Shown: positions 35,201 through 63,377 of the stretch, piece by piece
Layout of the letters: each line of letters opens with the position of its first letter
How positions within the stretch are numbered: the stretch's first letter is position 1
Assembly (NCBI GenBank): GCA_964016885.1
Contig: OZ024740.1
Span: forward strand, 288,858,001 to 288,922,000
Source: Eledone cirrhosa
Lineage: Eukaryota
DNA length: 64,000 nucleotides
Direction of reading: 5' to 3'
Program-made: the position numbers and the translations under genes
The notes under the pieces: model-generated
What the model was told of the DNA's origin: nothing
The model's database searches: none
Seen by the model: only the letters and a program-made list of their open reading frames with translations

Positions 35201-36850
35201 ACCACGCAGGTCACTAGTTTGTGATCTGAATAGGCAACCATTAACATTTGTGGACAGCTTAACTGTCCTTATTTCTAACTAGAACTCTATCTAGGTCGAT
35301 CTAGATGTTCCGCTGCGATTAGTCCACGCCCACAGTGGCACAGTCGGAAAATCTAGTCGATATCTATCGGCCAGGTCAAATCGGCCGATTAACTGTTTGA
35401 GGCTGTTACACCCCCCCCCCCCCCCTTTATCAGGACATGCTCCCACATAGTCCCAACGTGCATCTAGCGGGACGTTCCCAGAAAAGTCTCTAGACGTTTG
35501 AAGAAGTCTGGCCGCGGAGTTCCGGATGGGACATATGCGGCCACCAGCCTGAAGGCTCCACCTTCACTATCGTCAACGTCTAGGACCACCAGTCGACCCT
35601 CCGGATCCAGTTGTACCGTCTGTGTTACGAGGTCCAGGTGTTTCCGCAACAAAACGGCAACCCCGCCCCCACCTCCCGGCTGACAGAGAGATGCGTAGAT
35701 CTCAAAGCCGTCGAAGATAGGGGCCAGATGTCGCTCGCTGTGGATCCTGGACTTGCAAATGGCTACCACATCCATACTGTGCGACCTGAGGTCGTTTAAG
35801 AGTTTGCCCTGTTTCCAGGGCATCCCCAGGCCGCGTACACTCACACATCCAACTCTTATATTGGCCATGCTGGTGCTGAAAAGTTAAAAGAAGAGGAAAA
35901 GAAATCACTCACCCTTCGTCTCCTGGGGACCAGGCTGCACGATTTCCATGGGGGTGTTGGAGGGGTTGTCTGGGTGGGTGGTGGTTTCCGGCAAGGTGGG
36001 GACGGAGATGTTTAGTGGGGAGGCGGTGTCTGGTGGGATGGGGGTATCTGGGGTGGAGGTGTCTGGGTTGGGAGACATTTGAGAAGGACGCGGTTAAGTG
36101 GTTTCACGCAGGAATTCCCCACATCCTTTTCAAATGTTTCTTTTAGGGACCTATAAGTTTGTATAGGGACCCTAATCAGTTTTAGGTTCAGTTTTTTGTT
36201 ATTTTTAATAGAGTGGGCGAAAGTTTTCCCTTCAGTTTTCACTGAAGGGTTGTTCGTGATGGTCTCCATTAGTATTTTGTTTTCAGTGTTTATGTAAGTG
36301 TAAGTGTCATTTTCTTGTGTTGTGTTTGTTTTTGTCTGTAGTTCTTGTGTGTGCTTTCGTTTTGTTGTAGGTATTTTGTTTTCAGGAGATGAGGATTTTG
36401 TTTGTGATGTTTTTGTTGTTTGTGTTGGTGGTTGTATGTTTGTGGTAGTGTTTGCTGGTTTTTTGTTTTGTGATGTCTTTTCTTTATTATCGAGCGATGG
36501 GGTTCTCCCTCGTCTTCACTGGGTGATGACGAGATAGCCTTATCTGTTGTATCGTTTATGTGATTGGGGAGTTGTTGTGTCTGTATGTGATTTTGAAGTG
36601 GTTTTAGGTGGAGTGAGGTTGGGTGGGACTGTGTTTGTTGTGGTTATTTTTGTGTGTTGGTGTTGTTGTTGTTGTGGTGGTGGTATTGGTGGTTGTGTTA
36701 TTTTGATGGGTGTCGGCAGAAGAGTCTTTTTTTGACTCATTAATTTAGGACAGGAAGCATTCAGGTGACCCCTTCTAAAGCAGTGGTAACATGAAGGCCG
36801 CCTACCCTCAACCGAAAAATTTATGTAGGTGGGCTCGTTTGCACCAGAAC
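32270..36850 (-). mobile_element. Tx1/L1-clade LINE (ORF1 CCHC knuckle, APE, RT, C-terminal zinc finger), disrupted
   Basis: CYHCFRRGHLNASC at about 36750-36792; APE N-terminus 35868; SDHKLV; KSPGLYGLPYEFY; AYTDDV; ETVAHAFIHC; AATAAA + (ATCT)n tail. Confidence 0.9.
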
Positions 36851-37489
36851 TTCAACGCTAGTCCCATTAAATATTTAGACGAGATGTGGTTGTCAGTCAT
36901 TGGTTATGGTTTCTGGCACATTTCAAACAAGAACAAGGAATAAAGACATACCTCAATTTATGTTACAAAAAACATTTTTTATATGTAGGAGCAATTACAA
37001 AATATATACGAATACATTAATTGTTTCTACTTTTGGCACAAGGCCATCAATTATCCCAGTGCATTACTGGTACTTTATTTTATCGACCTCGTAAGGATGA
37101 AAGGCAAAGTCAACCTCGGCGGGATTTGAACTCAGATCGTAAAGGGACGTAACTATGCTGGAAAGCATGGTGTCTGACCCTCTACCGATACTGCCAATCC
37201 ACCGAATACATTAATGCTCCTAGGTTGGGAATATGTTTAAAACGTCAAATACTGCCACATGGTGTTGGTATCATCTCTTGAGCCGCTGCGTGATTATCGC
37301 ACGTCTATTGTCTTCAAGTGTTATTGTCCAAGCCACTGACGTCAGAACTAAGGGCAGTTAATCGACTGTGTAGGCAGTCGACGCTAGATGGCGTGATCTT
37401 CTACAAATACATCACTGGGGGACTTTCCTACTGAAAGTATCCTGTCTTCATCAAAATTGATGAAGCCGCTTTCTCTCTTCATTTATATA

Positions 37490-42032: not shown

Positions 42033-43159
42033 AATGAGGTCGATTTTTTATTTACAGTTGCAGTATGATTGGACTGGAAAACTTACTCATTTGTTGTATA
42101 TATTTTACCGTTTACTAATGACCTCTTACATGGTCTCTAAGCTGAGGGGACATCAAGTTAGATATCAACATTTATTCTGTCCATTTCATTAAAGGGAAAA
42201 ATTGGAAAGCTGAAATAATATAATTGCCACTTTCTTCCAGATAAGAGCACTCTTTGGATAGACAGAGTTGCTCTTGTAGAAATGTTCAAAATAGCTGGTA
42301 ACGTCTGGTGGCAATATAACAAATTCAACTGGTCCTTATTCATAAAAAAAAAGAACATTTATGTTCCTTTTTTTTTTATAATTTATATATATACTTCCTT
42401 TCAAGGAATGTATTTATACTCTCAACTGCCTGCAATGGTATTTTTGGAATATTGTTAATCAATTTATGAGTAATCTACTGATATCAAAATCAGTAGTATA
42501 TTGAAAAATGGAAAAGGGTAGGGGGCGTTTGGCCGAAATGGGTTGAGAACCTTTGGTCTAGTAGATAACCTCTAGTGCTGGGGCCACAAAATGCACTCAA
42601 TATAGTGTAAGGTGGTCATTAAAGGTCTCCAGTTGTAGAAACCACACCAGATATGGAACAGATGAACTTTCTCCAGCCAGTTTAGTATGTGGTTGTAAAA
42701 TATATATACACACTTGAATATATCCAAATTCTCATGTACCATATTTCTGCATTTTGTAAAACATTTGGATTCAGCATTAGCCTGTTGTAATGTTTGAGCC
42801 TACTCCAGAAAATGCAGCAAAATCAATTATTCTTGCTCCCTAGAAAATATCTCCAAGACTGATTTGTTCACAGCTCTTGAATTTTGGTTTTAAACTAGCA
42901 TCACAAGGTTAGCAAAAGCTAGTCTATCATACATATATAGTCGAGTCCTGTTTTATTCATGTTAAACACAGATCCTTTACAAGTATCATATAATTCTTTA
43001 GCATTTACATTACTCTACATATACTATTGTATTTTCACAGTAAAGGCATTATCTCACATAATATCGAATCTATGAAATATTGAGAACAATGCCTTAACAT
43101 CAATAAGTGGTTTGAAGAGAAAGAGGTGAGCGAATTTTGGCCAGATACAGCCGTTTTAA

Positions 43160-44197
43160 CCCTTTAGTGTTCAAACCGCCCGATAAGACCCACACTAAAA
43201 TTAAATACCGTCATCGAAATTAGGCCCTTACCAAGAAAATTAACACTTAATATAGTGAAACGTGTTTTTTTTAACGTTGAAAGTAGAACAGATTTTGTGT
43301 GTATTAACATGGCTTGTGAAAATAGCGATACCGACTTTGAAGGTTTTACACACGACGACATTCAGAATAAACAAGAAACAAACGATAATATTAGTGATTT
43401 ATCTTCAAACGAATCAGATGCTTACATTTCTGAAATTTCATCCGACGAGGATTGTTGTTTTGAAAGTGAAAACGAAGATCTCCAGGCCGCAATAGAAAAA
43501 TACCACACTAATATATGTTCCCGATTTTATTCAAAATACTGGTGCACAACACACATTAGCTCCCGATGCTAAAGCACTGGATTATTTCTTTGTTTTTACC
43601 ACAAACTTTCTTCGAAGTTGTGGCAGAAGAGATTAATCGATATGCCCAACAGATTTCAAATCGAGAAAAACACGATCTGTTTGGCAACCGACAGATGCTG
43701 CGGATTTTTACCGTAAATATTATGTTCGGTATAATACAATTTCCAAGACTGGAATTACTGAACACTGATATAAGGTTTAGTGATTCTTATATATCAAGTA
43801 TTATGCCGAAAACGTATTTAAAATTAAACCACTATCTGCACCTGGTTGATACTTCAAATGCCCGTTAATTTTCACCTGCCCATAAAAGTCAAATGTAACG
43901 AAAAAAAAAAATCTGGTAAAATTATATAATTGTAAATTATTGATATTTAAACATCTGACAAAATTTCAAGCCTGCACATAGAAAATTACAAATAAAATTG
44001 ATAACGATTAACTGAAAATAATTGTTTCTACTTTTGGCACAAGGCCAGCAATTATTCCAGTGTATTACTGGTACTTTATTTTATCGCCCCCGTAAGGATG
44101 AAAGGCAAAGTTAACCTCGGCGGGATTTGAACTCAGAAGTCAACTGAAAATAATGTGAACAGATTAGCATATTTGACAAAATGTGAATGCTAAAGGG
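43160..44197 (+). mobile_element. Internally deleted piggyBac (PGBD4-like) element
   Basis: TTAA-CCCTTTAG...CTAAAGGG-TTAA; acidic N-terminus DFEGF..SSDED; EINRYAQQ..YLHLVD. Confidence 0.8.
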
Positions 44198-44836
44198 TTA
44201 AATGCTCAATACTTTCAGATTCTGAATGTCAGTCTTCCGACTAGATTTTGAAGGGAATCAAAGTTTTGAGCCAATTGTAGACAAGCAGTTCATGTTGGAT
44301 AAGACAAGCATGCAGATGTGCAAAAGTTAATTGAGGAATCTGCAAAATTATCTACAGGAAACTGGCACCTGATCAACTCTGAATGAATGCATAAACCAAA
44401 CAGACTTTATTGCCATCAAGAAACAGGATAAGCGGACACTGCAGTCTTTCCACAATAATATACCTACCATTCAACATAAATTAGTACTAAACAGACAGCT
44501 GTAGGTGTAGAAATACTGCTTGAAGCTTTTGACAAGTAAATTGAGATCTACAACAGAGGACAAATGGGACTTCCTATGGGATAATATGAGGGCTACAGAA
44601 GAGATATATATGACTGAGGTAAGGTTCAACAGATTTAAGAGCCCTTTGTCTCATATGCTCATACACCAATAAACAAAAACGTTATACTTGATCACAAAAC
44701 CAGTCTAAGTTTGTTTATTTCACAACTTAATTGAAATATCCAATAAGGATATTTTAGTTAGAAATATAGTAATGAAAGGGTTTCATTTACAACAAAGCCA
44801 GTTTTAAATATACAGTTTATTCGCACTTTTCACAGT

Positions 44837-44989
44837 TTATTGCCTCTCCTCTGGTTTATTAAAGACATATGTTAAATAACATTTGCCACAGTAGTGCCTG
44901 TCAAAGTGGGAGGCCATAAACACACCAGCTCCACATTCCTCATTGGGACATTCACGGCGCAGACGAGTGATTTTGCCATTTTCATCAAC
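44837..44989 (-). CDS. RPS27A: RPS27A coding exon 4 ([37 protein letters not shown]...ERQ*)
   Basis: ttgcag acceptor; S27a C4 zinc finger; TAA; AATAAA at 44714-44719. Confidence 0.97.
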
Positions 44990-45068
44990 CTGCAACAGAC
45001 AAAACAGTACTTATGAATATTATAGTTAAATGAGTGAAAGATATCAACAAAGAAAGCAGGAAAGCCAT

Positions 45069-45131
45069 TACTCAGAGGATGCTTCAATACAAATCAAGAT
45101 ACTCAGAAGTGTCCCAAGTGGTCATTATCGT
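45069..45131 (-). ncRNA. Divergent SNORD58-like box C/D snoRNA
   Basis: ATAATGA-CCACTTGGGACACTT-CTGA...TGATT...CTGA; about 80 nt upstream of the exon 4 acceptor. Confidence 0.65.
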
Positions 45132-45613
45132 AATCAGCTCCTACACACATTCATTCAAAATTACCAAAATAACATTGACAAGTAGTTTGAAACTGTTTTC
45201 AGTAGCATTCAAATATGCAGGTGCAGACATTGCTTCATAATCATGTATATCACGTGAGTGAATTTGGTGGTAGATGGAAACTAAAGAAATACACCAAATA
45301 TGTTCACATCATGCCCCTTCACGTTTAAAAGCAGTGATGTTTAAGCGCCATATAAAAATTAATTCCTACAGTATAGCACTTTGTAAGTGACAATAAAAGT
45401 AGCAGTAATGAACTGAAAATTTACCTCTCAAACTTTTAGCTATAAATTCCTGACTTTACATTATACAAGCCTGACAACTGATTATTCATTTATACACTTC
45501 TCATAAAATTCGCTTTTACACCATCAGAAATACTAAAATGTAGCAAAATTTGTGATTCTGCCATTGAACATGTAATCAGGTCTTGCTAATTATCAATCAC
45601 TGGTGAGACAATT

Positions 45614-45674
45614 GTCTGTGAATCCCATTAATCTTCATTACTCAGATGAAACAGAAAAAAAACATCATTTCCAA
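45614..45674 (-). pseudogene. Degenerate SNORD126-like copy
   Basis: Guide mutated (TCTGTTTCA) and D box lost. Confidence 0.6.
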
Positions 45675-46367
45675 TGGGCTATGAAGAAACTATAATGTAT
45701 CACCCAAGTCAACAATGATAACTTAGTGAGTAAAAAATATCTATAACTCATTCAGTCTACCTAGCTTAAGTAGATAATGTTAGGTTGTAGCAAAACCTAA
45801 ACAGCTCTTAACTCTAGTACCCACGAAAAAGGAGTATTTAACCCTTTACATTACTCTATATATACTATTGTATTTTTGTGGTAAAGGCTTTATATTACAT
45901 AATTATCTCAATATCAAATCAGAGGTTTTGATTATTTATTTTGAGAACAATACCTAAATGGCAGCAAGTATGAGCAGCCAGCTACAGCATTTGGACTGAA
46001 AGAGGTGAGATAATTCTGGCCCGATTAAATACTGATTTATATCTATTCCCCCCCCCCCCCCCCCCAGCCTGCATGCAGTTATCGATTCCGGAATTAACTA
46101 TTTGTCTGAAGTAGTCCAACAAGTGTGGACATTATACATAAGTCTGACAAGAATTATGACCAATGATTATTCATTCACATACATTCTTTACTATTACCAA
46201 CACCAGAAATACTAAAATGTAGCAAAATTTCATATGGGTTTTATGAGGAAAGGTATAATCAGTAGCTAAGAGGTGATCCTGCCATTGAATATGTAATCAA
46301 GTCTTAATTATCAATCACTGTGGTGAGACAAGAATATTAAAACAATTATTTACAAGTATCAATTATT

Positions 46368-46440
46368 GTCTGTGGATCAGAAACCTATTAGTCTTCATTA
46401 CTCAGATGAAACACGGAAAATAACATCATTTCCAACAGAC
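46368..46440 (-). ncRNA. SNORD126-like box C/D snoRNA copy
   Basis: GTCTGT/ACAGAC stem, ATGATG, TCCGTGTTTCA-T-CTGA antisense to 28S TGAAACACGGA, ATGAAGA, CTGA. Confidence 0.8.
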
Positions 46441-46618
46441 GTTATATACTGGGCTATGAAGAAACTATAATGTACCACCCAAGTCAACAATGATAACTTA
46501 GTGAGTAAAAAATATCTATAACTCATTCAGTCTACCTAGCTTAAGTAGGTAATGTTAGGTTGTAGCAAAACCTAAATAGCTCTTAACTCAACTAACCACT
46601 AAAAAGGAGTGTTTAAAT

Positions 46619-46759
46619 CAGCAATTTCCCAACATTTGTACCCCTATGATACTCTTGGGAACCCCTGCAAAAATTAAATATGTATGCATTAGCTTATTTA
46701 TCAGTGTCTTGCAAAACCCCTAGTAACCTCTTGCAGAATGAGGGTTTCAGAAAACACTG
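46619..46759. mobile_element. Charlie-type MITE (duplicated at 48106-48245)
   Basis: CAGCAATTTCC...GAAAACACTG ends; imperfect 8-bp TSD GTTTAAAT/GTCTAAAT. Confidence 0.7.
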
Positions 46760-47080
46760 GTCTAAATACTGATTCACCCAGGTTGCTTGCAGTTGTTAAA
46801 TCCTGAACTAAGCACTCATTTGAAACAGTCTAACAATTAAATAGAAGTAGAATAGATAGCAAATGCAAACATTTATATACATCTCTTAAAATTCATTTTT
46901 ACTATTATCAACACCAGAAATACTAAAATGTAGCAAAATTTCATATGGTTTTATGAGGAAAGGTATAATCAGTAGCTAAGAAGTGATCCTGCCATTGAAT
47001 ATGTAATCATGTCTTACTAATTATCAATCACTGTGGTGAGACAAGAATATTAAAACAATTATTTACGATTATCAATTATT

Positions 47081-47154
47081 GTCTGTAGATCAGAAACCTA
47101 TTAGTCTTCATTACTCAGATGAAACACGGAAAAAAAACATCATTTCCAACAGAC
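47081..47154 (-). ncRNA. SNORD126-like box C/D snoRNA copy
   Basis: Same boxes, guide and terminal stem. Confidence 0.8.
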
Positions 47155-47854
47155 GTTATATACTGGGCTATGAAGAAACTATAATGTATCACCCAAGTCA
47201 ACAATGATAACTTAGTGAATAAAAAATATCTATAACTCATTCAGTCTGCTTAAGTAGGTAATGTTAGGTTGTAGCAAAACCTAAACAGCTCTTAACTCTA
47301 GTACCCACGAAAAAGGAGTGTTTAACCCTTTACATTACTCTATATATACTATTGTATTTTTGTGGTAAAGGCTTTATATTACATAATTATCTCAATATCA
47401 AATCAGAGATTTTGATTATTTATTTTGAGAACAATACCTAAATGGCAGCAAGTATGAGCAGCCAGCTACAGCATTTGGACTGAAAGAGGTGAGATAATTC
47501 TGACCCGATTAAATACTGATTTATATCTATTCCCCCCCCCCCCCCCCCCCCCAGCCTGCATGCAGTTATCGATTCCGGAATTAACTATTTGTCTGAAGTA
47601 GTCCAACAAGTGTGGACATTATACATAAGTCTGACAAGAATTATGACCAATGATTATTCATTCACATACATTCTTTACTATTACCAACACCAGAAATACT
47701 AAAATGTAGCAAAATTTCATATGGGTTTTATGAGGAAAGGTATAATCAGTAGCTAAGAGGTGATCCTGCCATTGAATATGTAATCAAGTCTTAATTATCA
47801 ATCACTGTGGTGAGACAAGAATATTAAAACAATTATTTACAAGTATCAATTATT

Positions 47855-47927
47855 GTCTGTAGATCAGAAACCTATTAGTCTTCATTACTCAGATGAAACA
47901 CGGAAAAAAACATCATTTCCAACAGAC
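47855..47927 (-). ncRNA. SNORD126-like box C/D snoRNA copy
   Basis: Same boxes, guide and terminal stem. Confidence 0.8.
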
Positions 47928-48566
47928 GTTATATACTGGGCTATGAAGAAACTATAATGTACCACCCAAGTCAACAATGATAACTTAGTGAGTAAAAAAT
48001 ATCTATAACTCATTCAGTCTACCTAGCTTAAGTAGGTAATGTTAGGTTGTAGCAAAACCTAAATAGCTCTTAACTCAACTAATCACTAAAAAGGAGTGTT
48101 TAAATCAGCAATTTCTCAACATTTGTACCCCTGTGATACTCTTGGGAACCCCTGCAAAAATTAATATGTATGCATTAGATTATTTATCAGTGTCTTGCAA
48201 AACCCCTAGTAACCTCTTGCAGAACGAGGGTTCCAGAAAACACTGGTCTAAATACTGATTCACCCAGGTTGCTTGCAGTTGTTAAATCCTGAACTAAGCA
48301 CTCATTTGAAACAGTCTAACAATTAAATAGAAGTAGAATAGATAGCAAGGGCAAACATTTATATACATCTCTTAAAATTCATTTTTACTATCATCAACAT
48401 GAGAAATACTAAAATGTAGCAAAATTTCATATGGTTTTATAAGGAAAGGTATAATCAGTAGCTAAGAAGTGATCCTGCCATTGAATATGTAATCAAGTCT
48501 TACTAATTATCAATCACTGTGGTGAGACAAGAATATTAAAACAATTATTTACAAGTATCAATTATT

Positions 48567-48639
48567 GTCTGTAGATCAGAAACCTATTAGTCTTCATTAC
48601 TCAGATGAAACACGGAAAAAAACATCATTTCCAACAGAC
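48567..48639 (-). ncRNA. SNORD126-like box C/D snoRNA copy
   Basis: Same boxes, guide and terminal stem. Confidence 0.8.
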
Positions 48640-49148
48640 GTTATATACTGGGCTATGAAGAAACTATAATGTATCACCCAAGTCAACAATGATAACATTG
48701 TATAACAGGGGATAAAAGAAAAAAAAAACCCTTAAAATTATGACTTTACCAGCCACAAAGCTATTATATTGAAAACTTCATCCTGTACAGCTCTAAAATC
48801 AAATTAAAAAGTAATCTTTTTTTACTTGACCAGTACAGACTTGCTCTATAACCTAGTGAAAATTGCACAAAATTAATTTGACTATACTAACCCATTTGTT
48901 ACCATATTTTTAATGAAATACACACTGCCTCTGATTTTCAAATAATCTAGAATTTAGAGATGTAGTATAAGCTTTCTCATCATTAAGATATTGTTCAAAA
49001 TGAAACTACAACATCATAAAATCAAAATGGTCTAGTATCATAAGGGTTAAGGTTGTACACTCAATTTGGCTATTCAGGTTATAGGGATTCATATGGTCGT
49101 TTTTGCCATATTAGAACCGAATACTGTACAAGAAATTGAATAAAATTA

Positions 49149-49403
<255 letters not shown>

Positions 49404-49469
49404 TTAAAAGTAAAAATCCAACTTCAACAGAGTGTCTGTAACATAGAAGCATTATTAAATACTACTTAC

Positions 49470-49524
49470 CCTCCTTATCCTGAATTTTTGCTTTGACATT
49501 TTCAATAGTATCACTGGGCTCAAC
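49470..49524 (-). CDS. RPS27A: RPS27A coding exon 2 (VEPSDTIENVKAKIQDKE)
   Basis: Ubiquitin residues 17-35; AG/GT boundaries. Confidence 0.97.
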
Positions 49525-50464
49525 CTAGTGACAAAAAAAAAAAAAACAACACATTTCAGCAATTACTTTCCTAGTTCAGTGGTCAGATTTACACAATTGT
49601 TCTTCCTTAGTATATAAATGTACCCAGCCCACTATAGTGGTAGTGCTGGTGCCATGATAAAATACATCCAATACGAAGAGCATCCAGCAATAGAAATCAT
49701 GCCAGAATGGAATGTATGAGCAAGAAATGGTCAACTGAACACAACAGCTTAACCCATGCAAGCATGAAAAATAAATATAAAATGACCCTTTCAGTGCTAG
49801 TTGATACCACTATGTGACATTTCAAGTGCGAACTAAATATCCACACAAGAAACCTATACATGGCAAGTTTTGGATAAAAATTATCCATCTAGTCATAATT
49901 TGCATATTCTTTAATATTTTATTTTCCAGAAAAGGCCTAATTTTTCTGTACATTTCTCATTGATCAGCTCTAGATTGAGATGAGAAAGAATAATTTTGCA
50001 TGTTTCACACAAGAACTATGGTCATAAACTACTTGGCATATACCAACAATATCCAGATTTACTGAAGAGCAGTACATAATGAAATGGCTGAGAAAAATTA
50101 GACAGTGCATTTGTATCTGTTGTCAGACAATATTATTCTATTCTAAAGCACAACAGGTTCATGGAGGAATGTAACCTAGTTTCAGGACATTTTGTAATTG
50201 AATTTAAGTATTCTTGGGGTCAATTGGAGACAGTTGCTCCTTGCCCCACGATCCTTCTAGGAATGAGGAGGCAAAATATTCAAGTATTCTTTGGATTATT
50301 TGCTTAAATTGCTGCACATAAATAAAGTCCTTATTTCATATACCTAAATTTTCAACACACAGCTGCTAAACAATCAATTCCATCTTAGCATTTGCAACAG
50401 GGGTCAGGGTCAAGTTTAGATAATCAATTAGTCCCTACTGGTATTAAATAAAATGATTGCTTAC

Positions 50465-50512
50465 CTCAAGTGTGATGGTCTTGCCAGTAAGGGTTTTTAC
50501 GAAGATCTGCAT
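50465..50512 (-). CDS. RPS27A: RPS27A coding exon 1 (MQIFVKTLTGKTITLE)
   Basis: ATG at 50512-50510; acceptor tttacag before 50523; donor gtaag. Confidence 0.97.
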
Positions 50513-50930
50513 GCTTGCAACCACTGTAAAATAAAACAAAACTAGCTTAGGCAACCAATATCAAATGGATTATTTATAAATTGAATCTTTGATTTTTATT
50601 TACCTCCTCTGATCAACCCAACCATTGCTGTATTTTATTTTACATTCATATAAATCAATTACAATAATTTTCTATTATATTATTTCAGTGGGTTTAGATT
50701 TCTCTGGAGTTTCTATTTAATCTGGCCTTTGTTAGTCATCATCATTGCCATTTTAACCCAGTTATTCCCTGCTAGCAAGGGTTCAACAGATCTACATAGA
50801 CCAAGCCAGTACTGAAGCAGGCTACTGACTTACAAGGCAGGATAGGGGTCTGTTTCTGAGATAAAATGCTAGAAAAATTGAAGCTAACAACCAAGTGACC
50901 GCTTCAATAATTTAACAGTAGAAAAATTAT

Positions 50931-50996
50931 TACTCAGAATATATAACTTAAGTGCAAATCACAGATTTCAGAAGTGTCCCAAGTGGTCATCACAGC
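50931..50996 (-). ncRNA. SNORD58-like box C/D snoRNA copy
   Basis: GTGATGA-CCACTTGGGACACTT-CTGA-..GTGATT..-CTGA; guide antisense to 28S GGTGTCC(T/C)AAG. Confidence 0.8.
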
Positions 50997-51435
50997 AATA
51001 ATTTTCTACTTCATTTATCAGCTTTACATAATTGTTTTTTTGTTTAACTTTTTTATGCAAACATTACTTTTGCTGGTCTCATCCCTTCATCACTCAAACT
51101 TAGCCCCTCTTGTAACCCATAAGGAAAAGCAGAGACCCACTAGACTAAAAAAAAAAAAAATCTTTGTTATGTCAGAACATCAATTTAATTAAGTGTACAT
51201 TGTCACAGACCCATCATTTGGAGCTTCTAAAGTAAACTGAAACCAGTTCAACAGCCTTTACATCACATTCTTATAGAAAAACTGCACTGAGGGGTTACCT
51301 TCCTCCTGTCCACCCTATTATTGTACATGATTTCGTTTCTACGCATGAGATGACTAGTCATATTTCATGCTTAAAGCCATTTTTTTCATATCATTCGCTG
51401 ATGTAACTACAACAGTTGAACCTAAAACGACTGTA

Positions 51436-51775
51436 TCATCATCATCATTTCATTTTACGTCCACTTTTCCCTGCTTGCAAGGGTGGGACGGGAACTGATT
51501 CTGGCTTGATTTCTACAGCTGGATGCCCTTCCTAACACCAACCTCATTTACAGTGAGTGCTGGGTGCTTTTTTGCTGTGGCACCTCCACGACCACTTTGC
51601 AGTGGAATGATATGAACCCCAGTCCCTATCATCTCATTTCTACAGCTGAGTAAACTGGAGCAATGTGAAATAAAGTGTCTTGCTCAAGGAAACAACACAT
51701 CACGCGGTCTGAGAATTGAACTCACAACCTTTCGATTGCAAGGCCAATGCTCTAACCACTAAGCCATGTGCCCCC
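51436..51775 (-). mobile_element. SINE inserted into one repeat unit
   Basis: Near-identical to 1853-2188; interrupts gactgtatc|aacactaat, which is intact in other units. Confidence 0.85.
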
Positions 51776-51804
51776 ATATCAACACTAATAAATAGGAAAA
51801 TCAT

Positions 51805-51869
51805 TACTCAGAATATATAACTTAGTGCAAATCACAGATTTCAGAAGTGTCCCAAGTGGTCATCACAGC
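51805..51869 (-). ncRNA. SNORD58-like box C/D snoRNA copy
   Basis: Identical boxes and guide. Confidence 0.8.
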
Positions 51870-52326
51870 AATAATTTTCTACTTCATTTATCAGCTTTAC
51901 ATAATTGTTTTTTTTGTTTAACCTTTTCATGCAAATATTACTTTTGCTGGTCTCATCCCTTCATCACTCAGACTTAACTCCTCTTGTAACCCATAAGGAA
52001 AAGCAGAGACCCACTAGACTAAAAAAAAAAATCTTGGTTATGTCAACAATTTAATTAAGTGTACATTGTCACAGACCCATCATTTGGAGCTTCTAAAGTA
52101 AACTGAAACCAGTTCAACAGCCTTTACATCACATTCTTATAGAAAAACTGCACTGAGGGGTTACCTTCCTCCTGTCCACCCTATTATTGTACATGATTTC
52201 GTTTCTACACATGAGATGACTAGTCATATTTCATGCTTAAAGCCATTTTTTCCTATCATTCCCTGATGTAACTACAAAAGTTGAACCTCAAATGACTGTA
52301 TCAACACTAATAAATAGGAAAATCAT

Positions 52327-52391
52327 TACTCAGAATATATAACTTAGTGCAAATCACAGATTTCAGAAGTGTCCCAAGTGGTCATCACAGC
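52327..52391 (-). ncRNA. SNORD58-like box C/D snoRNA copy
   Basis: Identical boxes and guide. Confidence 0.8.
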
Positions 52392-52847
52392 AATAATTTT
52401 CTACTTCATTTATCAGCTTTACATAATTGTTTTTTTTGTTTAACCTTTTCATGCAAATATTACTTTTGCTGGTCTCATCCCTTCATCACTCAGACTTAAC
52501 TCCTCTTGTAACCCATAAGGAAAAGCAGAGACCCACTAGACTAAAAAAAAAAATCTTGGTTATGTCAACAATTTAATTAAGTGTACATTGTCACAGACCC
52601 ATCATTTGGAGCTTCTAAAGTAAACTGAAACCAGTTCAACAGCCTTTACATCACATTCTTATAGAAAAACTGCACTGAGGGGTTACCTTCCTCCTGTCCA
52701 CCCTATTATTGTACATGATTTCGTTTCTACGCATGAGATGACTAGTCATATTTCATGCTTAAAGCCATTTTTTTCCTATCATTCGCTGATGTAACTACAA
52801 AAGTTGAACCTAAAATGACTATCAACACTAATAAATAGGAAAATCAT

Positions 52848-52912
52848 TACTCAGAATATATAACTTAGTGCAAATCACAGATTTCAGAAGTGTCCCAAGT
52901 GGTCATCACAGC
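52848..52912 (-). ncRNA. SNORD58-like box C/D snoRNA copy
   Basis: Identical boxes and guide. Confidence 0.8.
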
Positions 52913-54209
52913 AATAATTTTTCTGCTTTACATAATTGGTTTTTTAATGTTTAACCTTTTAACACAAACATCACTTTTGCTGTAGGTAGCAACAAATTTA
53001 GCTACGCCTACCTAAATGAACAGCTACAGCTGGTCTCATTCAATTTTCACTCAGACTTACTCCTCTTGCAACCCGTAGGCTACTAGTCAAGGCCCACTAG
53101 ACTAAAATAAAAAAAATCTTAGTTCTTATGTGAATATTAATTTATACAAATGTGTTGATTCCCTCAGCTGCCAAGGAAGGTCTCTAAAAGTTGTCAACTT
53201 TTGCTACCCAGGCAATCAAATTAGTAGTGGGGAGGATGCACTAGCTAGGAATAAGTTCAGAGATCTATTACCACTACTAACAACAAAATGCTGTTCTCTC
53301 ACAGAGTGAAGGGTAGACTGTGCAATATTACAAGGCAGTGAAACATGGGCCTTGACTGCAGAAGCTAGAAAGATATGAGTTGATATACTCCAATGGATGT
53401 GCAATGTTAGTGTGGATGAGCAACATAGAATAAACAGAGGGAAAATTTAGCATAAGAGGAATTGGATGTACTGTGCATTGAAGATAGCAGCTGCATAAAG
53501 AAATGCAGAGAAACCCCAGTGGATGGAACCCATGTAAGAAGATGGCATGAGGTGAGGTTATAAAAACTCACCTTAAAAAGCTAAACCTTACAACAGAAAT
53601 GACAGGAAACTGTGAGGGCTGGTGCTATGCAGCCCTGAAGAAGACCAGGTTTGCAACATACACTATTACCTGACCTACCTTCCACTAGCGCTCCCTAACA
53701 GTTATTCTCAACACAACTACTTCAACTTCCCAACATACATTAAAAAACAAAGGGCCAGTAGGACACTTTGTACAAACACACCCGTAGAAATCTTGCCAAA
53801 CAAAGGGTTGAGAGGACCATCAGTTATGCCAAACCTCTCCTGTGGACAAGGTGGAACGCAAGACAGATCCCTTTTCTTCAGTAGACTTGGTCTGTATGGA
53901 CCTGTGCAACCCCTGCTAGCACGGTAAGTGGACGATAAAACGACGATGAGATATTAGGAGTTACTTTCCTCCTGGCCACCCCATTATCATTTTACATGAT
54001 TTCGTTTCTACAAATGGGGTGACTAGTCATATTTCAGGATTAAAGCCTTTTTTTTCATCATTCACCGAAGTGACCCTTAGTAACTACAAAATTTAAAATA
54101 TGACGTCATATTTCATGCTTAAAGCCATTTTTTTTCTATCACTCCCTGATGTAACTACAAAAGTTGAACCTAAAACAACTGCATCAACACTAATAAATAG
54201 GAAAATCAT

Positions 54210-54274
54210 TACTCAGAATATATAACTTAGTGCAAATCACAGATTTCAGAAGTGTCCCAAGTGGTCATCACAGC
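54210..54274 (-). ncRNA. SNORD58-like box C/D snoRNA copy
   Basis: Identical boxes and guide. Confidence 0.8.
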
Positions 54275-54945
54275 AATAATTTTCTACTTCATTTAGCAGC
54301 TTTACATAATAGGCTATATAGCCGGTAAACGTTAAAGGGACGCAACACAGCACTTCACCAACCCCTTCCTTCTGTTGCCTGTATCCGTTGATGTATTTAC
54401 GTTACGAATGGACGACTATAACTAATTTATCTTTTAACAATTGATGGTGAAAATATTTCAAACTGTCTTAACTCATAGTGTCTAACACTCTTACCGGCTA
54501 CATAGCCTCTTCCTTTTTTAATGTTTAACCTTTTCGTGCAAATATTACTTTTGCTGGTCTCATCCCTCAGACGTATCCCCCTTGTAACCCATAAGGAAAA
54601 GCACAGGCCCACTAGACTTTTAAAAAAAAAAAAAAAATTCATCTTGCTAAAGTCAGAACATCAATTTAATTAAATGAGCACATTGTCATTGACCCCATCT
54701 TTTTTAAAATCATTTGGAACTTCTAAAGTAAACTGAAACCAGTTCAACAGCATTTATATCACATTCTTATAGTAAAACTGCACTTGTTAGAGAGGTTACT
54801 TTCCTCCTGTCCACCTTATTAATTTACATGATTTCGTTTGACTAATCACATTTCAGGATTAAAGCCATTTTTTTTCTATCATTCCCTGATGTAACTACAA
54901 AGGTTGAACCTAAAATGACTGTATCAACACTAATAGGAAAATCAT

Positions 54946-55010
54946 TACTCAGAATATATAACTTAGTGCAAATCACAGATTTCAGAAGTGTCCCAAGTGG
55001 TCATCACAGC
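54946..55010 (-). ncRNA. SNORD58-like box C/D snoRNA copy
   Basis: Identical boxes and guide. Confidence 0.8.
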
Positions 55011-55714
55011 AATAATTTTCTATTTCATTTATCAGCTTTACATAATTGTTTTTTTTCATACATACAGGCAAAGAAAATGAACGATAAACCGCAGTGATTT
55101 ACCTCCATGTAAGGCAGTTCAAATTCTTTTTTTTTTTGTTTTTATCACACATCAACATTAGCTAATAAAACTAATGTCATAATAACAGCGTTCGGAATTT
55201 AAAAAAAAATTCAAAAACCGTTTCATGAACTTTTAAAATACATGCGGTAGCCTCTGGCACAGGGTAGTATTCCTTGGCCGAAATAACCCGAAAACTATCC
55301 TCGTACTGGCGTCATAACATGCTCCCTGTATACACTGAGATGTGGTTTGTATTATGAAGGCAACCAGCTGAGGAAGCCATTTCGAAACCGTCATATATGT
55401 AAGCTAGACCTGGCACGGCTGACTAACTCCGATAAACTATTGATTTGGTCTACGACGACCGACTCTAACCCTTATGGACAAAAGCAAACAACCCATTTCC
55501 TTTCTAGGTAAACATTTTGGACACGAACGTGGAATAAAAATAGGCAACTCATCGCTATTTTTTTCCAACGGGACAAAATGTTGCTGAGACGATACCATCC
55601 CCACAACTTTTGCGGGGATGTAGGGGGCATATAGCAGTAGTCTGATTCGATGATACTAGCGTCACAATTAGTTGAAAATATAATTTTACCAAATCAAGAA
55701 TAAAACAAATTTTA

Positions 55715-56830
55715 GTACTTAGTACACACGCAATGGCGGAAAAATTAGTTTAAAGGAGGCACTTTCTCGAAACTAATTGTTGCAACAAAATTTATAAAGA
55801 ACGTCATATATATAAACACATAATAGGTGTCATTGGCAAAAGATCTCAAATGAAAAAATCTTGATTTCACATGTTCCCCAACATCTATATATAGATAGAT
55901 TCAAAAGGGAAGTCAGTGTTGCAAAATATGTACAAATTTTATTTTCATATTACATTTCGATATCGATCATCTCAGGAATACAACCCAAACGAATCTCGTA
56001 ACAGCTTCGAACGGCGCGCCGCCAGTAACTTGTTATACCACACACATACAAGTCAATGAGAAATCCAGAAAATAGATATTTCATTAATGATACACATATC
56101 ACGATGTGTGTGTGATTATTTGAACCGCAAGAATTGAAAACTCAATAACAATGAGTAATCCAAATACTGCAGGTGAAATCATTTAGACCGGTCTTGAAAC
56201 ATCAGAACTCCCTTTTCCTAGCGGAACACGAAATTCTACGCAGACATTTTAGTTACGACCATATTGTTATATTCGATCAGTATCAAATACTTATTTAACG
56301 AGTCCTCCCTAAGGGTGGTATTTTAGGAAGATCTTATTTCTACCAAGTATTCGGACATCGATGATTAAACGTGTCCTTACCTTAAGATGGCAGTATGACG
56401 GAAAATTGACAAAAAACGAACTGACTTAGTAATGTATAGACATTTTATACCCACAAAAATCAATTTCAACAGTGAAAAATACAAATTATTCTCGTTCTTT
56501 ACGACAAGTAATGAATTTATTATTAGCTTAATTTATATGTACACGCAGATTCCATGCTTGAGGAAAGAAATGGACTCCACGTGAAACAATCCCAATAATT
56601 AAAAGATCTCTCTCGCAACGATACGCCGTTTACTTACATATAAAATACATCACTATATAAGTAAAAGATTAAGCCAACGTAAATATATGTAAAATGAACA
56701 TTATTTATCACATTAAAGAGATATCTAAAGCAATTTTTGCTGGAGAAAACTTACCTGCTATGTACAGCAATGGCGAACTCCAATTGAAAGGACGATTGCC
56801 TCGTTTTCAGTAATAACCACGTGATCAAGA
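55715..56830 (-). promoter_or_regulatory. RPS27A: RPS27A promoter / non-coding first exon(s): TCT-like starts, YY1 GCCAT motifs, E-boxes
   Basis: cctttc..cgccattg..CAG|gtaagt (56755-56792); ttttccg..gccatcttAAG|gtaagg (56381-56407); ttttccgccattg (about 55730-55745); CACGTG at 56578 and 56818; locally CpG-rich. Confidence 0.65.
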
Positions 56831-57749: not shown

Positions 57750-58370
57750 AATTAAAGACATGAAGATAAGGAAGGCAGTGGGACCATCTGATATGGTAAA
57801 AGCAGCTGGCATTGTAGGATATTATCTAGTCAGATGCATAGCTACTCAATGACTGACAGCAATATCATTGTAAATTGCTAGAATGATGAAGGAGATGCAT
57901 TAGAGAGAAGTAGCTACAGATGCATCAAATTAATCGACCAGGCCATGAAAGTTACTGAGAAGGTTATAACAACTAATTCGGGACAGATTTATGTTAGACG
58001 AGATGCAGTTTGGATTTATGCCAGGAAGGGTTACTAACAATGCTCTCTTTCTGGTGAGACAACTACAGGAGAAGTACTTAGCAAAGAGTAAGCCACTGTA
58101 CCTGGCTTTTGTAGATATGTAGAAGGCCTTTGACAGGGTCCTCTGCTCTGTAATCTGGTGGGTACTTAGAAAGCTAGATGTAGACGAATGGCTTGTAAGG
58201 GCTGTGTAGGCCATGTATAAAGGAGCAACCAGCTGAGTGAGTACAGTGATGAATTTGAAGTGTAGGGCTGTCCTCAGTTCACTTCAGTTTATCATTGCCC
58301 TTGAGACCATCACTAAAGTGTTTAAATCTAGCATGGCATGGGAACTCTTATATGCTGATGACTTATAGCT
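57750..58370 (+). mobile_element. Degenerate RTE LINE fragment
   Basis: Homologous to 20790-21430. Confidence 0.8.
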
Positions 58371-59899
58371 GAAAGATTTTAATTTAAATTGGAAAATGGT
58401 TATATTTCATAGAACTAGACCAGGTTTTGGCCAGGTTGGTAACTAAAGGGTTAATGATACATCCATTAGTGTTGATGGATGTAAAATAATTATACATGTA
58501 AATGATACTGTTTTGCTTTATTCCCACATCAACCTTGTGCAGTATTTATTAAAAAAAAAGAATAAAATATTCATCTATAGGAGCTTTCCATATGATTTCT
58601 TGATAAAGAAATGTTGATGCATTCTAGATGTCAATGTATACTAAAACAACTGAACACACTCATCATTATCATGTTTGAATAATATTAAGAATATTGTTCA
58701 TCGAAAATAGCAGAGAAAAATATATTCATAATACTCTATAAAATATCTTGACATTATATTATAAAAGAATCATACAATTTTCATCAGGCTTGGATAAGAA
58801 AACAAAATAAATTCTGTTCACATAGTTGATCCAGTGTTATTTTAACAGTTACAGTAAGACCTGTTTCTCTACACATGCCCAAAGTTATTTCCTATATTAT
58901 TGAAAGGATTAAAATAATATTAGTCATTGAGTTAATATTGGTTCTTCTTCACCACATATGTATTTTTAATTAGGTATTTAACATTCTCTTACTTAATCCT
59001 TTAGCATTTAAACTGGCCGTTTCCAGCCAGAATTCTCTCACCTCTTTCTGTTAAAACTGGCTGTAACCAGCCACTCACACCAACATTAAGTTATTGTTCT
59101 AAAAAAAAAAATAATATCAAAATCTCATAGAATCGATATTATGTGAAAATATAATAGTAAATATAGAGTAATGTAAATGCTAAAGGGTTAAATATGCTAA
59201 TACTAACCAAACTATTATTGTGCATGTGGATGGCATCTCAGTGTAATTAACATCAGTGATTTATTTTCTTTTAAATATTCTACCTAGTGATTCTCCCATC
59301 ATTACTTCTGCATGTACACTGACATCTATGCTTTGTTGAGGTCTAATAATGCCAAAAGAGTGGTCTTCCATATTTGTTGAATTTATTTAAATAATTGTTT
59401 CTACTTTAGGCACAAGGCCAGCAATTACCCAGTACATTACTGGTACTTTATTTTATCGACCCTGTAAGGATGAAAGGCAAAGTTAACCTCGGCAGGATTT
59501 GAACTCAGATTGTAAAGGGACGTAACTATGCTAGAAAGCATGGCGTCTAACCCTCTACTGATACTGCCAATTCACCGCCATGAATTTATTTAATTGATGA
59601 AATTTTTGAATATTTAAGGATATTGATGAATATTTAAGGATGATAGGCAAAGTCAAGTGATTAAGTTTATGTTGTGTATTCCTAACTAGATAGGTATTTC
59701 TAATTAGGTATTTAATGCTTTTTATGTTAAATATGTTAACATAAACTTTATTTTATTTTTATATATTTTAAGAGAGTAACCCCTTTGCGGGTTTGATAAA
59801 GTACCAGATTTGGTGTGAATAAGACCACCAAAACTGCAACTGCAACATGGTGAGGAAAGCAAAGAAGAACCATACCACATCATCCTTCACACAAATTAA

Positions 59900-62700
59900 C
59901 AAGGGACATGTTCAGGCCTTAGTTAGAGGGGCCTGTTCGAAAAATATATTGCAGTTTCCATTTAATGCCACAAAAACTGGCAATGGGCCTGCGACCTGCC
60001 TTGGAGGTGTGGGATGGACGCACAAAGATTGTGTATCCTGAGACCCCAAAGAAGGTCTGGAAGGGAGAAAACCATGACCCTTGGAACCTGGAACATCACA
60101 ACCCTTACAGGTAAGGAGCAGGAACCAGTGGAGAAGGCTAGATGCTACCGGCTAGATATAGTCTGGGTTTCTTCAGCAAAGTTCCATGGCTCTGATACTC
60201 TAAATTTGGATGGGGGGATGGAAATTCCACTATTCAGGTGTGGCACCAGAAATGACTGTACAGACAGGAGTGAGGATACTTACAAGCCCCCAGCTGTCAG
60301 AATGGTTTATGGACAGGATCCCATTAGGAGGGAGGATTTGCTTCTTGAAGCTTAAACAGGATGATAGGTCTCTGTGTGTGGTGCAAGTTTATGCACCAAA
60401 CAAGGAGTCTGAATACAAGTCCTTCCTTGGTGAAGTCACTGCAACATTAAATGTAGTTAAGCCTGAGCCATATATCTTGATGGGAGACTTCAATGCACAT
60501 GTTGGCACTGACCACTTGACATGGAAAGGAGTGATTGAAAGGAATGACGACCCCAATATAAATACAAATGGAAAGGCCTTATTAAACTTCTGTTCTAGCA
60601 ATGGACTCTCTTTTAGGAACACCTTCTAGCACGGAGACATCCATAAAAATACATGGAATAAGGGGAATTAGGGACAGAGATCAATAATTGATTTTGTTAT
60701 TGACTCTGATCTCTTCAATTCTGTGCTGGATGTACATGTTAAAAGAGGGGCTAAGCTGTCAACTGATTACCATCTAGTTATCTGCAACTTGAGACCACCT
60801 AAAGCCAAATAAGCTCACAAAGCTGACAGGTACAGGGCGACCTAGAGGATAAAATGGGAAGCATTGGTGAATAAGGAAGTCAGGACCAGGTATGCAGATA
60901 CAATTGCATCCAAATTTAGGATGTTGAGACAAAGTGGAGATTGTGCAGCTCAGCAGTTTCTGCTTCAGCTGTTAAATGTTGTGAAAGGCTTGATGTGGCG
61001 ACAGATGGCAGGGGGACGCCTTGGTTCAATCAAGAAATGAAAGATGCCATCCGAATAAAGAATGAGGTCTTCAAAGTTTGGCTTAGAAAGAAGTCCACCT
61101 TCTTGCACTTGTGGTACAAGCAGGCACAAAAAATTGCAGCAGAGACATTAAAGGCATCCAAAGTTACGACATGGGGGGACTTTAGGATTACGCTGGAATC
61201 TGATTTCAGATCAGCAAATAAAGTGTTCTGGTAAACTATTCGCTGATTTCATAAGAAGCTCTCCTCCACACCTGCTATCAAGAACGCATCTGGGGTTCTC
61301 CTCTTCAGAGAGATGCATCTTCACGAGGTGGAGAGAATACTTTGCTGATCTAAAACTGATCCCAACATCTTCTGATGTACACAAGGTGCACCTGTGAGTG
61401 GCGACTAATCTCTCAGAGGCTGTGGTCACAAGAGCAGTTAAAGAGCCCAAATATGGCAAGACCACTGGGGAAGATGAAATCCAGCCCGAGATGTTAAAAG
61501 CCTTAAACAGAGAAGGTATTCTCTGGATGACTTGTGTGTGTGGCTATTGAGAGTGATAAACTCAATTTTTAAAAAGGGAGACTAGAGAGATTGTTCCAAT
61601 TACAGAGGAATCTCCTTGTTAAGTCACCCTGGTAAAGCCTTTGCTAAGAGTCTTGCAAAGAGATGCAAGGAGATTGTCGAATCCAAGTTAACTGATGAAC
61701 AGTGCAGTTTTTGCCCTGGACACAGCACAGCCGACCAAATATTCACACTGGCAGGTCTTTGAGAAATCGCGGAAGTATTGCCAAGAAGTATATTCTTGTT
61801 TCGTCGACCTTGAAAAGCCATATGACCACATTCCTCAAGATCTGCTGTGGACAGTTGTGCAGGAGTATGTGATCGATAGTCTGCTTCTTGCTACCCTGAT
61901 GTCTCTATACAAATGCCCAAGTTTTTGTGTTTGGATAAATGGTGCTAAATCAAAACCATTCAATGTGGGAGTCAGACTCTGCCAAGGGTGTATAATGTCA
62001 CTTCTGCTGTTCATTATTTTCATGAACAGGATTGACATGCTCAGCTGGGTTGGAAGTGGTATCATGACTGGCGGGTGGAGTATAAAATTAGTTGGAATTT
62101 GCAGACGACATAGTGTTACTTAACTCGGCAGAAGACAATCTCCAACTTGCACTTGATACGTTTGATGCCATGGCTGGAATAGTGCACTCTACATGTAAAT
62201 GGAGTTCCACTGAAGCAAGTAGAGAAGTTCAAGTATCTCTGGGCCGTGTTCATGAGTGATCGAAAGCAGGAGGCAGAATTAAGTGTAAGAATTGCAGGAG
62301 CTGGTGCAGTAACGTGCCAGTTTCAACATTCAATAATCAAAAGAAAGGAGGTAGGCATAAAAGCCAAACTCCCTATCCTCAATTCAGTATTTGTGCCAAC
62401 TCTTATTTATAGTCATGAATCTTGGGTAATGACCAAAAGAATACGATCGTAAATACAAGCGGCTGAAATAGGGTACCTCTGAAGGGTCTTTGGAGTAACG
62501 TTATTTGATAGAATGCGTAGCTCAGAGATCAGAGAGTCACTCCAGCTAGAGCTGCTACTTCTCCGAATTGAGAGATCACAGCTCCGATACTATGGGCATG
62601 TGGTTAGAATGTCTCAGGAACAAATCGCTGGACAGATTTTATGGGCAAAACCAACTGGCAGGGAGAAGAACAAGATGATGATGATGATGACCATCATCAT
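59900..62700 (+). mobile_element. Near full-length RTE-clade (Rex3/Expander-like) LINE, disrupted
   Basis: LGTWNI, VYAP, MGDFNAHVG, TDYHLV APE motifs; CFVDLEK and HESWVMT RT motifs; (GAT)n tail. Confidence 0.9.
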
Positions 62701-63377
62701 CATCATCAACAACAACAACAACCAATCTATTCAATTGATAAATTTTCAGCAGAAGGAAATTATAGAACAAATTGTTGTTGCCCCTCATCTTTTTCAAAAT
62801 TTGTATCAAAGTGACTATATTAATAAAAATTTGAAATGGTTAAGAAAGGTCAAGATTGCTGAATTTGCATGTATTAATGTGACACATTAAATATATCAAA
62901 ATGATTAAATCATAGAATATGTCAAGCTAAGCTAAATCAACGGAAACGTCCAAGATGTTAATTCGACCTGCTAAAAATAGCAGCTAAAACTCTCTTGATT
63001 TGTGCTTTATACTCACAAGTTCTGATTTTACTGCGGATTTACCCATGCAAAATATTACACAAACTCACAGGGTTACATTTTGTACTTCTAATGTTTTTAT
63101 TTTCCTTCTCTTTGCATGTTCATTGCTCTTTCTCTCCCACTGTATTTACCTGCCTCTCACATGACTACACTCCTCTCCATGCACTCATAATCTTCTCTCC
63201 CCTTCTCCACTTTCTATCCCTCCCTCTGCTCACCCCTTACTTCGTCCTCATGCACAGCCCACCTATGTCTTTGTTCAACCCGTCGGTGGCCCAATGTTTC
63301 AATCGAACTATCACCGGCAATTACCAATTGCTAAAGTTACCACCACTTTAACCTAGTCCATTCTAAGTGGCGGTGGC

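Follow-up and report, generated by a model that had tools for sequence, protein, structure and literature searches.

Tandem arrays of predicted box C/D methylation guides in two introns of RPS27A in Eledone cirrhosa

Small nucleolar RNAs (snoRNAs) encoded in animal introns are trimmed from the debranched intron, mostly one from each, and a pair in one intron can give rise to a long non-coding RNA with snoRNA ends (sno-lncRNA) (PMC11028025; PMC4696412). Box C/D genes commonly duplicate in cis inside their host (PMC8178906), and gene conversion keeps tandem C/D arrays homogeneous (PMC12429941). On human 28S ribosomal RNA (rRNA), Gm4228 belongs to SNORD58 and Am1323 to SNORD126 (PMC11550049; PMC9941101), and amniote SNORD58 has four cis copies, in different introns of RPL17 (PMC2817437). 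Known guides exist for both sites, and neither cis-duplication nor intronic clustering is new. This study concerns a stretch of 64,000 nucleotides from the 3.0-Gb genome of Eledone cirrhosa (contig OZ024740.1, positions 288,858,001 to 288,922,000; hereafter the window, whose own numbering is used for all positions), where two introns of the ribosomal protein gene RPS27A carry six intact copies of a SNORD58-like guide (A type) and four of a guide predicted for the Am1323 site (B type), near-identical within each type and repeated in tandem.

RPS27A lies on the minus strand, is the sole match in a genome-wide search and is represented in run X4 by a spliced contig (depth 1353) that unites its four coding exons through the joints 44989/49167, 49384/49470 and 49524/50465, in agreement with the host named in an initial annotation of the window. 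That contig skips the last intron as a single 4177-nt piece with no exon of the main mRNA inside, and X4 depth never reaches exon level between 50524 and 55300, so that the A array sits in an intron of the 5' untranslated region; the proposal of several snoRNAs per intron therefore holds for the main mRNA. Exon 1 likely lies at 56381 upward, judging from the sequence; another candidate, at 55103, was ruled out by an X4 depth of 9.5 in that bin. The features of the locus are the following.

44837–44989, minus strand: last coding exon of RPS27A (S27a zinc-finger part, to the stop); X4 spliced joint
44990–49166, minus strand: last intron, 4177 nt, containing A7 and the B array; X4 joint and splice sites
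45071–45128, minus strand: A7, diverged SNORD58-like copy with C box ATAATGA, likely disabled; same letters in the X1/X2 contig 44600–45704
45552–48696, no strand assigned: B array, units of 709–777 bp, two-unit block duplicated at 1484–1487 bp
45612–45668, minus strand: B1, damaged B copy lacking one guide base and the D box; same letters in the X1/X2 contig
46377–46429, minus strand: B2, intact C/D gene, predicted guide for the A equivalent to Am1323
47090–47143, minus strand: B3, intact C/D gene, predicted guide
47864–47916, minus strand: B4, intact C/D gene, predicted guide
48576–48628, minus strand: B5, intact C/D gene, predicted guide, core kept better than flanks in organism B, a relative (run X5)
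49167–49384, minus strand: coding exon of RPS27A (ubiquitin end and S27a start); X4 joints and splice sites
49470–49524, minus strand: coding exon of RPS27A; X4 joints and splice sites
50465–50523, minus strand: first coding exon of RPS27A (ATG); X4 joint and splice sites
50934–50993, minus strand: A1, intact SNORD58-like C/D gene with one extra linker base
51442–51776, no strand assigned: very high-copy tRNA-related repeat, likely a short interspersed element, inserted in the first A unit; offset of 874 against 522, tRNA match at 51709–51766, and depth
51808–51866, minus strand: A2, intact SNORD58-like gene
52330–52388, minus strand: A3, intact SNORD58-like gene with a 10-bp terminal stem
52851–52909, minus strand: A4, intact SNORD58-like gene
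54213–54271, minus strand: A5, intact SNORD58-like gene
54949–55007, minus strand: A6, intact SNORD58-like gene
56381–56425, minus strand: candidate non-coding exon 1 (pyrimidine-rich start, AAG/GTAAGG donor), predicted from sequence

Of the seven SNORD58-like and five SNORD126-like copies first reported, all twelve places stand, with ten copies intact (six A, four B), two damaged (A7 and B1), and the seventh A copy located in the last intron and not in the A array. The ten intact genes likely guide 2'-O-methylation at the two known 28S sites, as their composition predicts: C and D boxes, a terminal stem, at least 10 nt antisense to rRNA beside the D' box, and a target at +5. On the genome's own 28S the A guide binds AGGU[G]UCCCAAG through 11 Watson-Crick pairs and a single G-U pair in seven of seven copies, and the B guide binds UGA[A]ACACGGA through 11 Watson-Crick pairs in four of five, the intact ones. 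The bracketed base stands at D'+5, for A the G in AGGUGUCCCAAG and for B the second A in UGAAACACGGA, at own-28S positions 4226 and 1084 respectively when numbered from where the Rfam match in L009 begins, which upholds the proposed match to the sites of SNORD58 and SNORD126. Both target texts are present in all four large-subunit (LSU) rRNA copies examined (L009–L012). Shuffled guides reached 11 Watson-Crick pairs anywhere in the LSU in 3 of 300 trials for A and in 15 of 300 for B, so that the B duplex by itself is only moderately rare, and the case for the predicted B target rests on the register shared with the Rfam SNORD126 consensus guide; the A guide is likewise in the register of the SNORD58 consensus. 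At one position the A guide departs from that consensus and from 53 of 55 distinct homologs, with G in place of A, and its own 28S carries the matching C there; the guides of other animals suggest a U at this position of their 28S. The LSU rRNA matches span 5.1 kb in L009 and 6.3 kb in L010–L012, some 28S copies being about 1.2 kb longer between the two target sites.

The A copies share with amniote SNORD58 (U58; RF00151) the guide core, the D' register, the target G (Gm4228) and multi-copy residence in one ribosomal protein gene (PMC2817437; PMC11550049), and differ in their host, in the packing of six copies into one intron as head-to-tail repeats, in their scores of 30.4–30.8 bits and in the guide G that matches their own 28S. 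At sub-gathering scores the SNORD58 model finds seven places, the six intact copies and A7 (21.1 bits), none of which reaches the gathering score of 42 bits. The Rfam support sought by the initial annotation did not materialise, an Infernal-type check having returned no gathering-level match in the window, and the A copies are classed as SNORD58-like, not as formal members of the family. The RF00151 model fits invertebrates poorly, since only one of 26 SNORD58 matches at 12 loci of other animals passes 42 bits.

Each of the six intact A copies combines C box GTGATGA, D' box CTGA, a C'-like TGATTT and D box CTGA with a long terminal stem, and their C boxes stand at 55007, 54271, 52909, 52388, 51866 and 50993. 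Because five of the six are identical, A1 alone having its extra base, mapping to copy-specific polymorphisms is unable to separate those five; among all the intact genes, A1, B2 and B3 alone can be told apart by sequence. The copies are spaced by 873, 522, 521, 1362 and 736 bp, and insertions and partial units explain why only two of the five spacings fit the ~520-bp unit originally described; the B units of ~710–770 bp and the 1486-bp repeat, by contrast, were confirmed (spacings of 709–777 bp and a higher-order duplication at 1484–1487 bp, its halves 94% alike with indels). A7, which is about 79% like the other A copies and lies 81 nt from the 3' splice site, retains the guide, the D', C' and D boxes and a 5-bp stem. 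The intact A copies are some 410–4420 nt from their own 3' splice site, so only the damaged A7 occupies the classic distance; we infer that it is an older resident, made dispensable once the array existed.

Poly(U)-UAG acceptor-like sites occur on the minus strand in four A units (53097, in a partial unit, 52536, 52014 and 51140), in several of them about 315 nt 3' of the snoRNA, and in the unit with 53097 a consensus donor at 53060, 36 nt further on, delimits a candidate non-coding mini-exon. X4 gave no sign that these sites are used, the mini-exon bin having a depth of 0.37 against 1353 for the mRNA in contigs that drop rare forms. The A spacer was also considered as the source of an H/ACA or otherwise structured RNA, an idea that was dropped, with no convincing fold and no Rfam match.

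The B copies resemble SNORD126 (RF01168) in their guide and D' box, UCCGUGUUUCA-N-CUGA in a common register, and in the A predicted as target. They differ in being shorter (53 nt from C to D), in their C box AUGAUGU (ATGATGT in the gene, one mismatch to the RUGAUGA consensus, with D box CTGA) and in forming four tandem copies in RPS27A; on a 106-nt stretch the RF01168 model gives 17.5 bits (E 0.2, fourth by score among 23 weak matches) against a gathering score of 55. The B type is predicted to work like SNORD126 and is not classed as a member; the resemblance may reflect either common descent or convergence. The four intact C boxes lie at 48628, 47916, 47143 and 46429, and the stem consists of 6 bp outside and a short inner stem. 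The B type is also distinct from U18, which resides separately in RPL4: the idea that it stands in for U18 was rejected when a family search found four intact U18 genes there (one U18 pattern had given no match, and a second ten against eight in the control, L091 lying within a minisatellite). A further C/D candidate, the third, lies within the B unit (GTGATTGA...CTGA, 48455–48517) and was rejected as well, with seven listed differences in organism B and variation among the window copies.

Within the B units, the 26-nt stretch at 48398–48424 and its equivalents are identical across all five units, including the deleted B1 unit, with extra contigs in X1, X3 and X5. A high-copy repeat fragment was duplicated along with the higher-order unit (45845–46030 and 47329–47510); a longer relative of it lies at 43000–43900, and similar ones in RPL4 introns (L096).

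DNA and pattern searches, which may miss degenerate copies, found no further copy of either guide in the genome. Seven of 13 pattern matches for SNORD58 fell outside the window, against four in the control, and none of the six inspected had a D' box in register. Contigs of runs X1 and X2, possibly from the assembly's own sample, match the window without difference in its unique parts and across the array junctions 52892–53358, 53791–54212, 45926–46227 and 44600–45704, the last spanning both A7 and B1. X1 and X3 contain a 234-nt version of the B unit that is absent from the assembly, and repeat pieces show 2–4 differences (4 of 470 sites, 2 of 489) where unique pieces show 0–1. That there are multiple copies is secure, but not precisely how many or in what order.

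A scan of metagenome contigs built on the window's A motif gave 52 loci (L013–L064), and in 42 of these the guide is accompanied by RPS27A exons with matching intron positions. Grouping the loci by shared snoRNA sequence leaves 33 clusters, not to be read as independent species, 26 of them with RPS27A exons. These SNORD58-like genes share host and intron positions with the window and come as two or three copies per gene, sometimes per intron: three of the 26 RPS27A clusters (L023, L024 and L044/L062) have two or three in one intron, and the other 23 have one per intron. In contrast to the window, they mostly keep the motif GCGTTAC, and no B-type guide was found in the RPS27A introns of the animals sampled. 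The same-intron copies of L044/L062 are probably a small duplication with exon remains; in L023 and L024, which lack tandem DNA units, the likeness between copies is limited to the snoRNA, so that same-intron copies can persist. The initial view of the array as lineage-specific is therefore wrong for the host link, given these 26 of 33 clusters and the four cis copies of SNORD58 in amniote RPL17 (PMC2817437): the family tends to multiple copies in whichever host, its residence in RPS27A is old, and the present locus stands out for its tandem DNA array.

Across 17 A homologs the terminal stem is 96.5% paired with seven cells changed on both sides, a level reached by none of 500 shuffles. In 48 of 55 distinct homologs GCGTTA(C) stands before the D box, 3' of the C' box, and is complementary to GGUAACGC of 28S just 5' of the target, which makes it a likely extra-pairing element. 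At L038 and L039, a pair of SNORD58-like copies separated by about 800 nt lies in a host with an exon that resembles RPS9 by its motif, which would make it a third ribosomal protein host of the family. The GC-richer contigs L055 and L056, without RPS27A, have SNORD58-like guides with the same G as the window, and L055 has two copies 139 nt apart.

The locus also has parallels in its architecture. Like animal intronic clusters and sno-lncRNA loci, it has several snoRNAs in one intron (PMC11028025), at least two snoRNA genes lying inside one intron of the main transcript; what sets it apart are the six and four near-identical C/D copies, with predicted rRNA targets, in a housekeeping gene. The duplication and non-allelic gene conversion that shape the tandem C/D arrays of SNORD115 and SNORD116 (PMC12429941) probably have their counterpart here. 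The RPS27A arrays are far smaller, with canonical rRNA guides and a protein-coding host, and contribute no unit exon to the main mRNA, only acceptor-like sites. SNORD115 and SNORD116, by contrast, are orphan guides, mostly one per intron, in a non-coding host with non-coding exons in each unit. Among the open-access papers listed, no report was found of six or four tandem C/D copies in single introns of an animal ribosomal protein gene, nor of a link between SNORD58 and RPS27A, on which supplementary snoRNA tables could bear; PMC3412847 mentions neither RPS27A nor SNORD58, and PMC6962438 only counts snoRNA loci.

Divergence within the arrays points to purifying selection on the A-type genes. 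Among the four copies with alignable flanks, none of 70 snoRNA columns varies against 18 of 122 near-flank columns (p 1.7e-4, with a few 3'-edge columns maybe misaligned), and in four whole units, U5 being taken without its insertion and U4 and the last copy omitted as partial, none of 70 varies while 53 of the unit's other 408 columns do. Units U1–U3 differ at 3–16 of 506–520 sites (U2 and U3 at 3 of 520) and U5 at 43–52 of about 493, so that units 9–10% apart retain identical A genes. The description of near-invariant boxes and guides between diverging flanks is right for the A genes and overstated for the flanks, which are mostly 85–99% alike.

Intact B units are closer, at 2–10 differences in 317–320 sites (0.6–3%; B2 and B4 at 2 of 319). 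Organism B has three different versions over 48395–48501, more than two alleles would provide, each 11–15% from the window, and its B units overall are 10–15% away. Their summed depth is 65–78 against 15–16 on single-copy pieces, depth not being a copy-number measure, and there are hints of about four B-unit copies, on contigs too short for placing them within the gene. The snoRNA region is represented there by one contig (depth 54) with 4 differences in 70; the two listed changes, changes private to one contig being hidden by a 30% cut-off, are one that keeps the stem (48573) and one at the first base outside the duplex (48617). With window units only 0.6–3% apart, the array was either homogenised or re-amplified since the split from organism B.

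Stacking and decay are not unique to RPS27A. A second gene of the same genome (L096 1242–9100; G000:C4:327.46 Mb), which we take to be RPL4 from its peptide motifs, holds four intact and three decayed U18-type places: three, one of them decayed, have an intron to themselves, and the other four, two intact and two decayed, share a single intron. Two of the U18 copies, 4.1 kb apart, have 165 nt in common at 97%.

The reading that best accommodates these observations, with a probability of roughly 0.55, is that local duplication increased the number of canonical guides and homogenisation kept them alike, that copies arise and decay while each intact one is maintained by purifying selection, and that the extra copies provide redundancy more than proportional dosage. 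The snoRNA genes would be transcribed with RPS27A and snoRNP (small nucleolar ribonucleoprotein) proteins would bind the copies on the intron; the 10-bp terminal stem could aid the A copies and free them from the need for a place near the branch point, long stems being known to permit splicing-independent C/D assembly away from it (PMC5519232; PMC10234308). The debranched intron would then be trimmed to mature guides. Since trimming from the ends frees just one snoRNA per intron, the extra copies would mostly amount to redundancy, most likely raising the chance of guide capture and buffering mutations, and several guides would be released only if the long AU-rich spacers were cut. The damage to A7 and B1 and the mixed RPL4 intron are signs of birth and death.

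Several observations weigh against this reading. The invariance of the A genes covers linker bases too, and recent conversion could mimic selection. The B genes are no better kept than their flanks in this genome (2 of 62 against 11 of 255, p 0.52), and comparison with organism B gives a marginal contrast (4 of 70 columns as opposed to 53 of 436, p 0.077; for the interior, with 1 of 39, p 0.047) on records that are not independent. The persistence of the L023 and L024 copies without flank likeness suggests that each is released and used, which favours dosage. Finally, the window A copies lack the GCGTTAC element, of which a remnant at most is left, a weakness that dosage might offset.

Selected dosage, with an endonuclease or nested splicing freeing all copies, up to ten guides per transcript and copy number itself under selection, we consider unlikely, though it is the alternative that survives best. 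The amplification of dosage proposed at the outset was not demonstrated: purifying selection per copy appears for A only, but copies are gained and decay at RPL4 too, and maturation by exonucleases alone would leave each intron with no more than a single free snoRNA or a single long snoRNA-ended RNA. It would explain the invariance of the A genes against their flanks, the survival of old same-intron copies in L023 and L024 and the multi-copy state of B in organism B as well; SNORD58 is multi-copy wherever sampled, with four copies in amniote RPL17 (PMC2817437) and two or three per RPS27A elsewhere, and in human the abundance of a family tends to go with how many of its members are expressed (PMC8178906). 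With the extra-pairing element lost, more guide might be needed, and the poly(U)-UAG sites about 315 nt 3' of several A copies would offer nested splicing a place to act; the mini-exon bin, however, is nearly empty in X4, within the limits of contigs that omit rare forms, decayed copies occur at both ends of the array as well as in RPL4, and one copy per intron suffices in 23 of 26 RPS27A clusters. A bolder form, in which several C/D snoRNPs leave each lariat by a route undescribed for animals, be it an endonuclease acting in the spacers or nested splicing at the poly(U)-UAG sites of the A units, and the array acts as a homogenised, copy-number-tunable amplifier of up to ten guides per transcript, is slightly more speculative still.

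It is improbable that the outermost copies shield both ends of the introns and that the main products are sno-lncRNAs, one about 4.1 kb long with six A snoRNPs and one of some 2.3 kb with four B snoRNPs; such RNAs may still guide methylation or bind proteins. Two snoRNAs per intron yield such RNAs in mammals (PMC11028025; PMC4696412), and since the arrays are apparently the sole guide copies in the genome, any product must serve methylation if the sites are modified; that same exclusiveness argues for free snoRNAs, and the spacers have no conserved element beyond the snoRNAs, the third candidate not being kept in organism B, and tolerate repeat insertions. Least probable is a neutral, recent satellite-like amplification with one working copy per type, the rest passengers and the array perhaps in part an assembly mosaic, which would suit the near-identity of U2 with U3 and of B2 with B4, the B version missing from the assembly and the excess of differences in repeat pieces, and which is countered by junction-spanning contigs that match without difference (from runs that are maybe the assembly's own sample), by higher-order halves only 94% alike with indels, by identical A genes in units 9–10% apart and by the multi-copy state of organism B.

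Elsewhere in the window, a unit of 24 nt, a multiple of three, is repeated about 104 times with 89% matches over 4431–6879, possibly as a repetitive coding exon, and broken frames resembling reverse transcriptase and endonuclease of LINE-type (long interspersed) elements, recognised by eye, lie at 32500–36900 and 57900–62900.

In summary, redundancy being the preferred account of the extra copies, the RPS27A locus departs from the usual animal pattern of one snoRNA per intron, and does so in a housekeeping gene, with 12 copies that Rfam gathering scores miss altogether. Should redundancy be all there is to it, the locus would be a modest case of birth-and-death evolution among snoRNAs. Because both guides apparently occur nowhere else in the genome, it also offers a clean test of how multiple snoRNAs exit from one intron: singly, by cutting, or as a long snoRNA-ended RNA.

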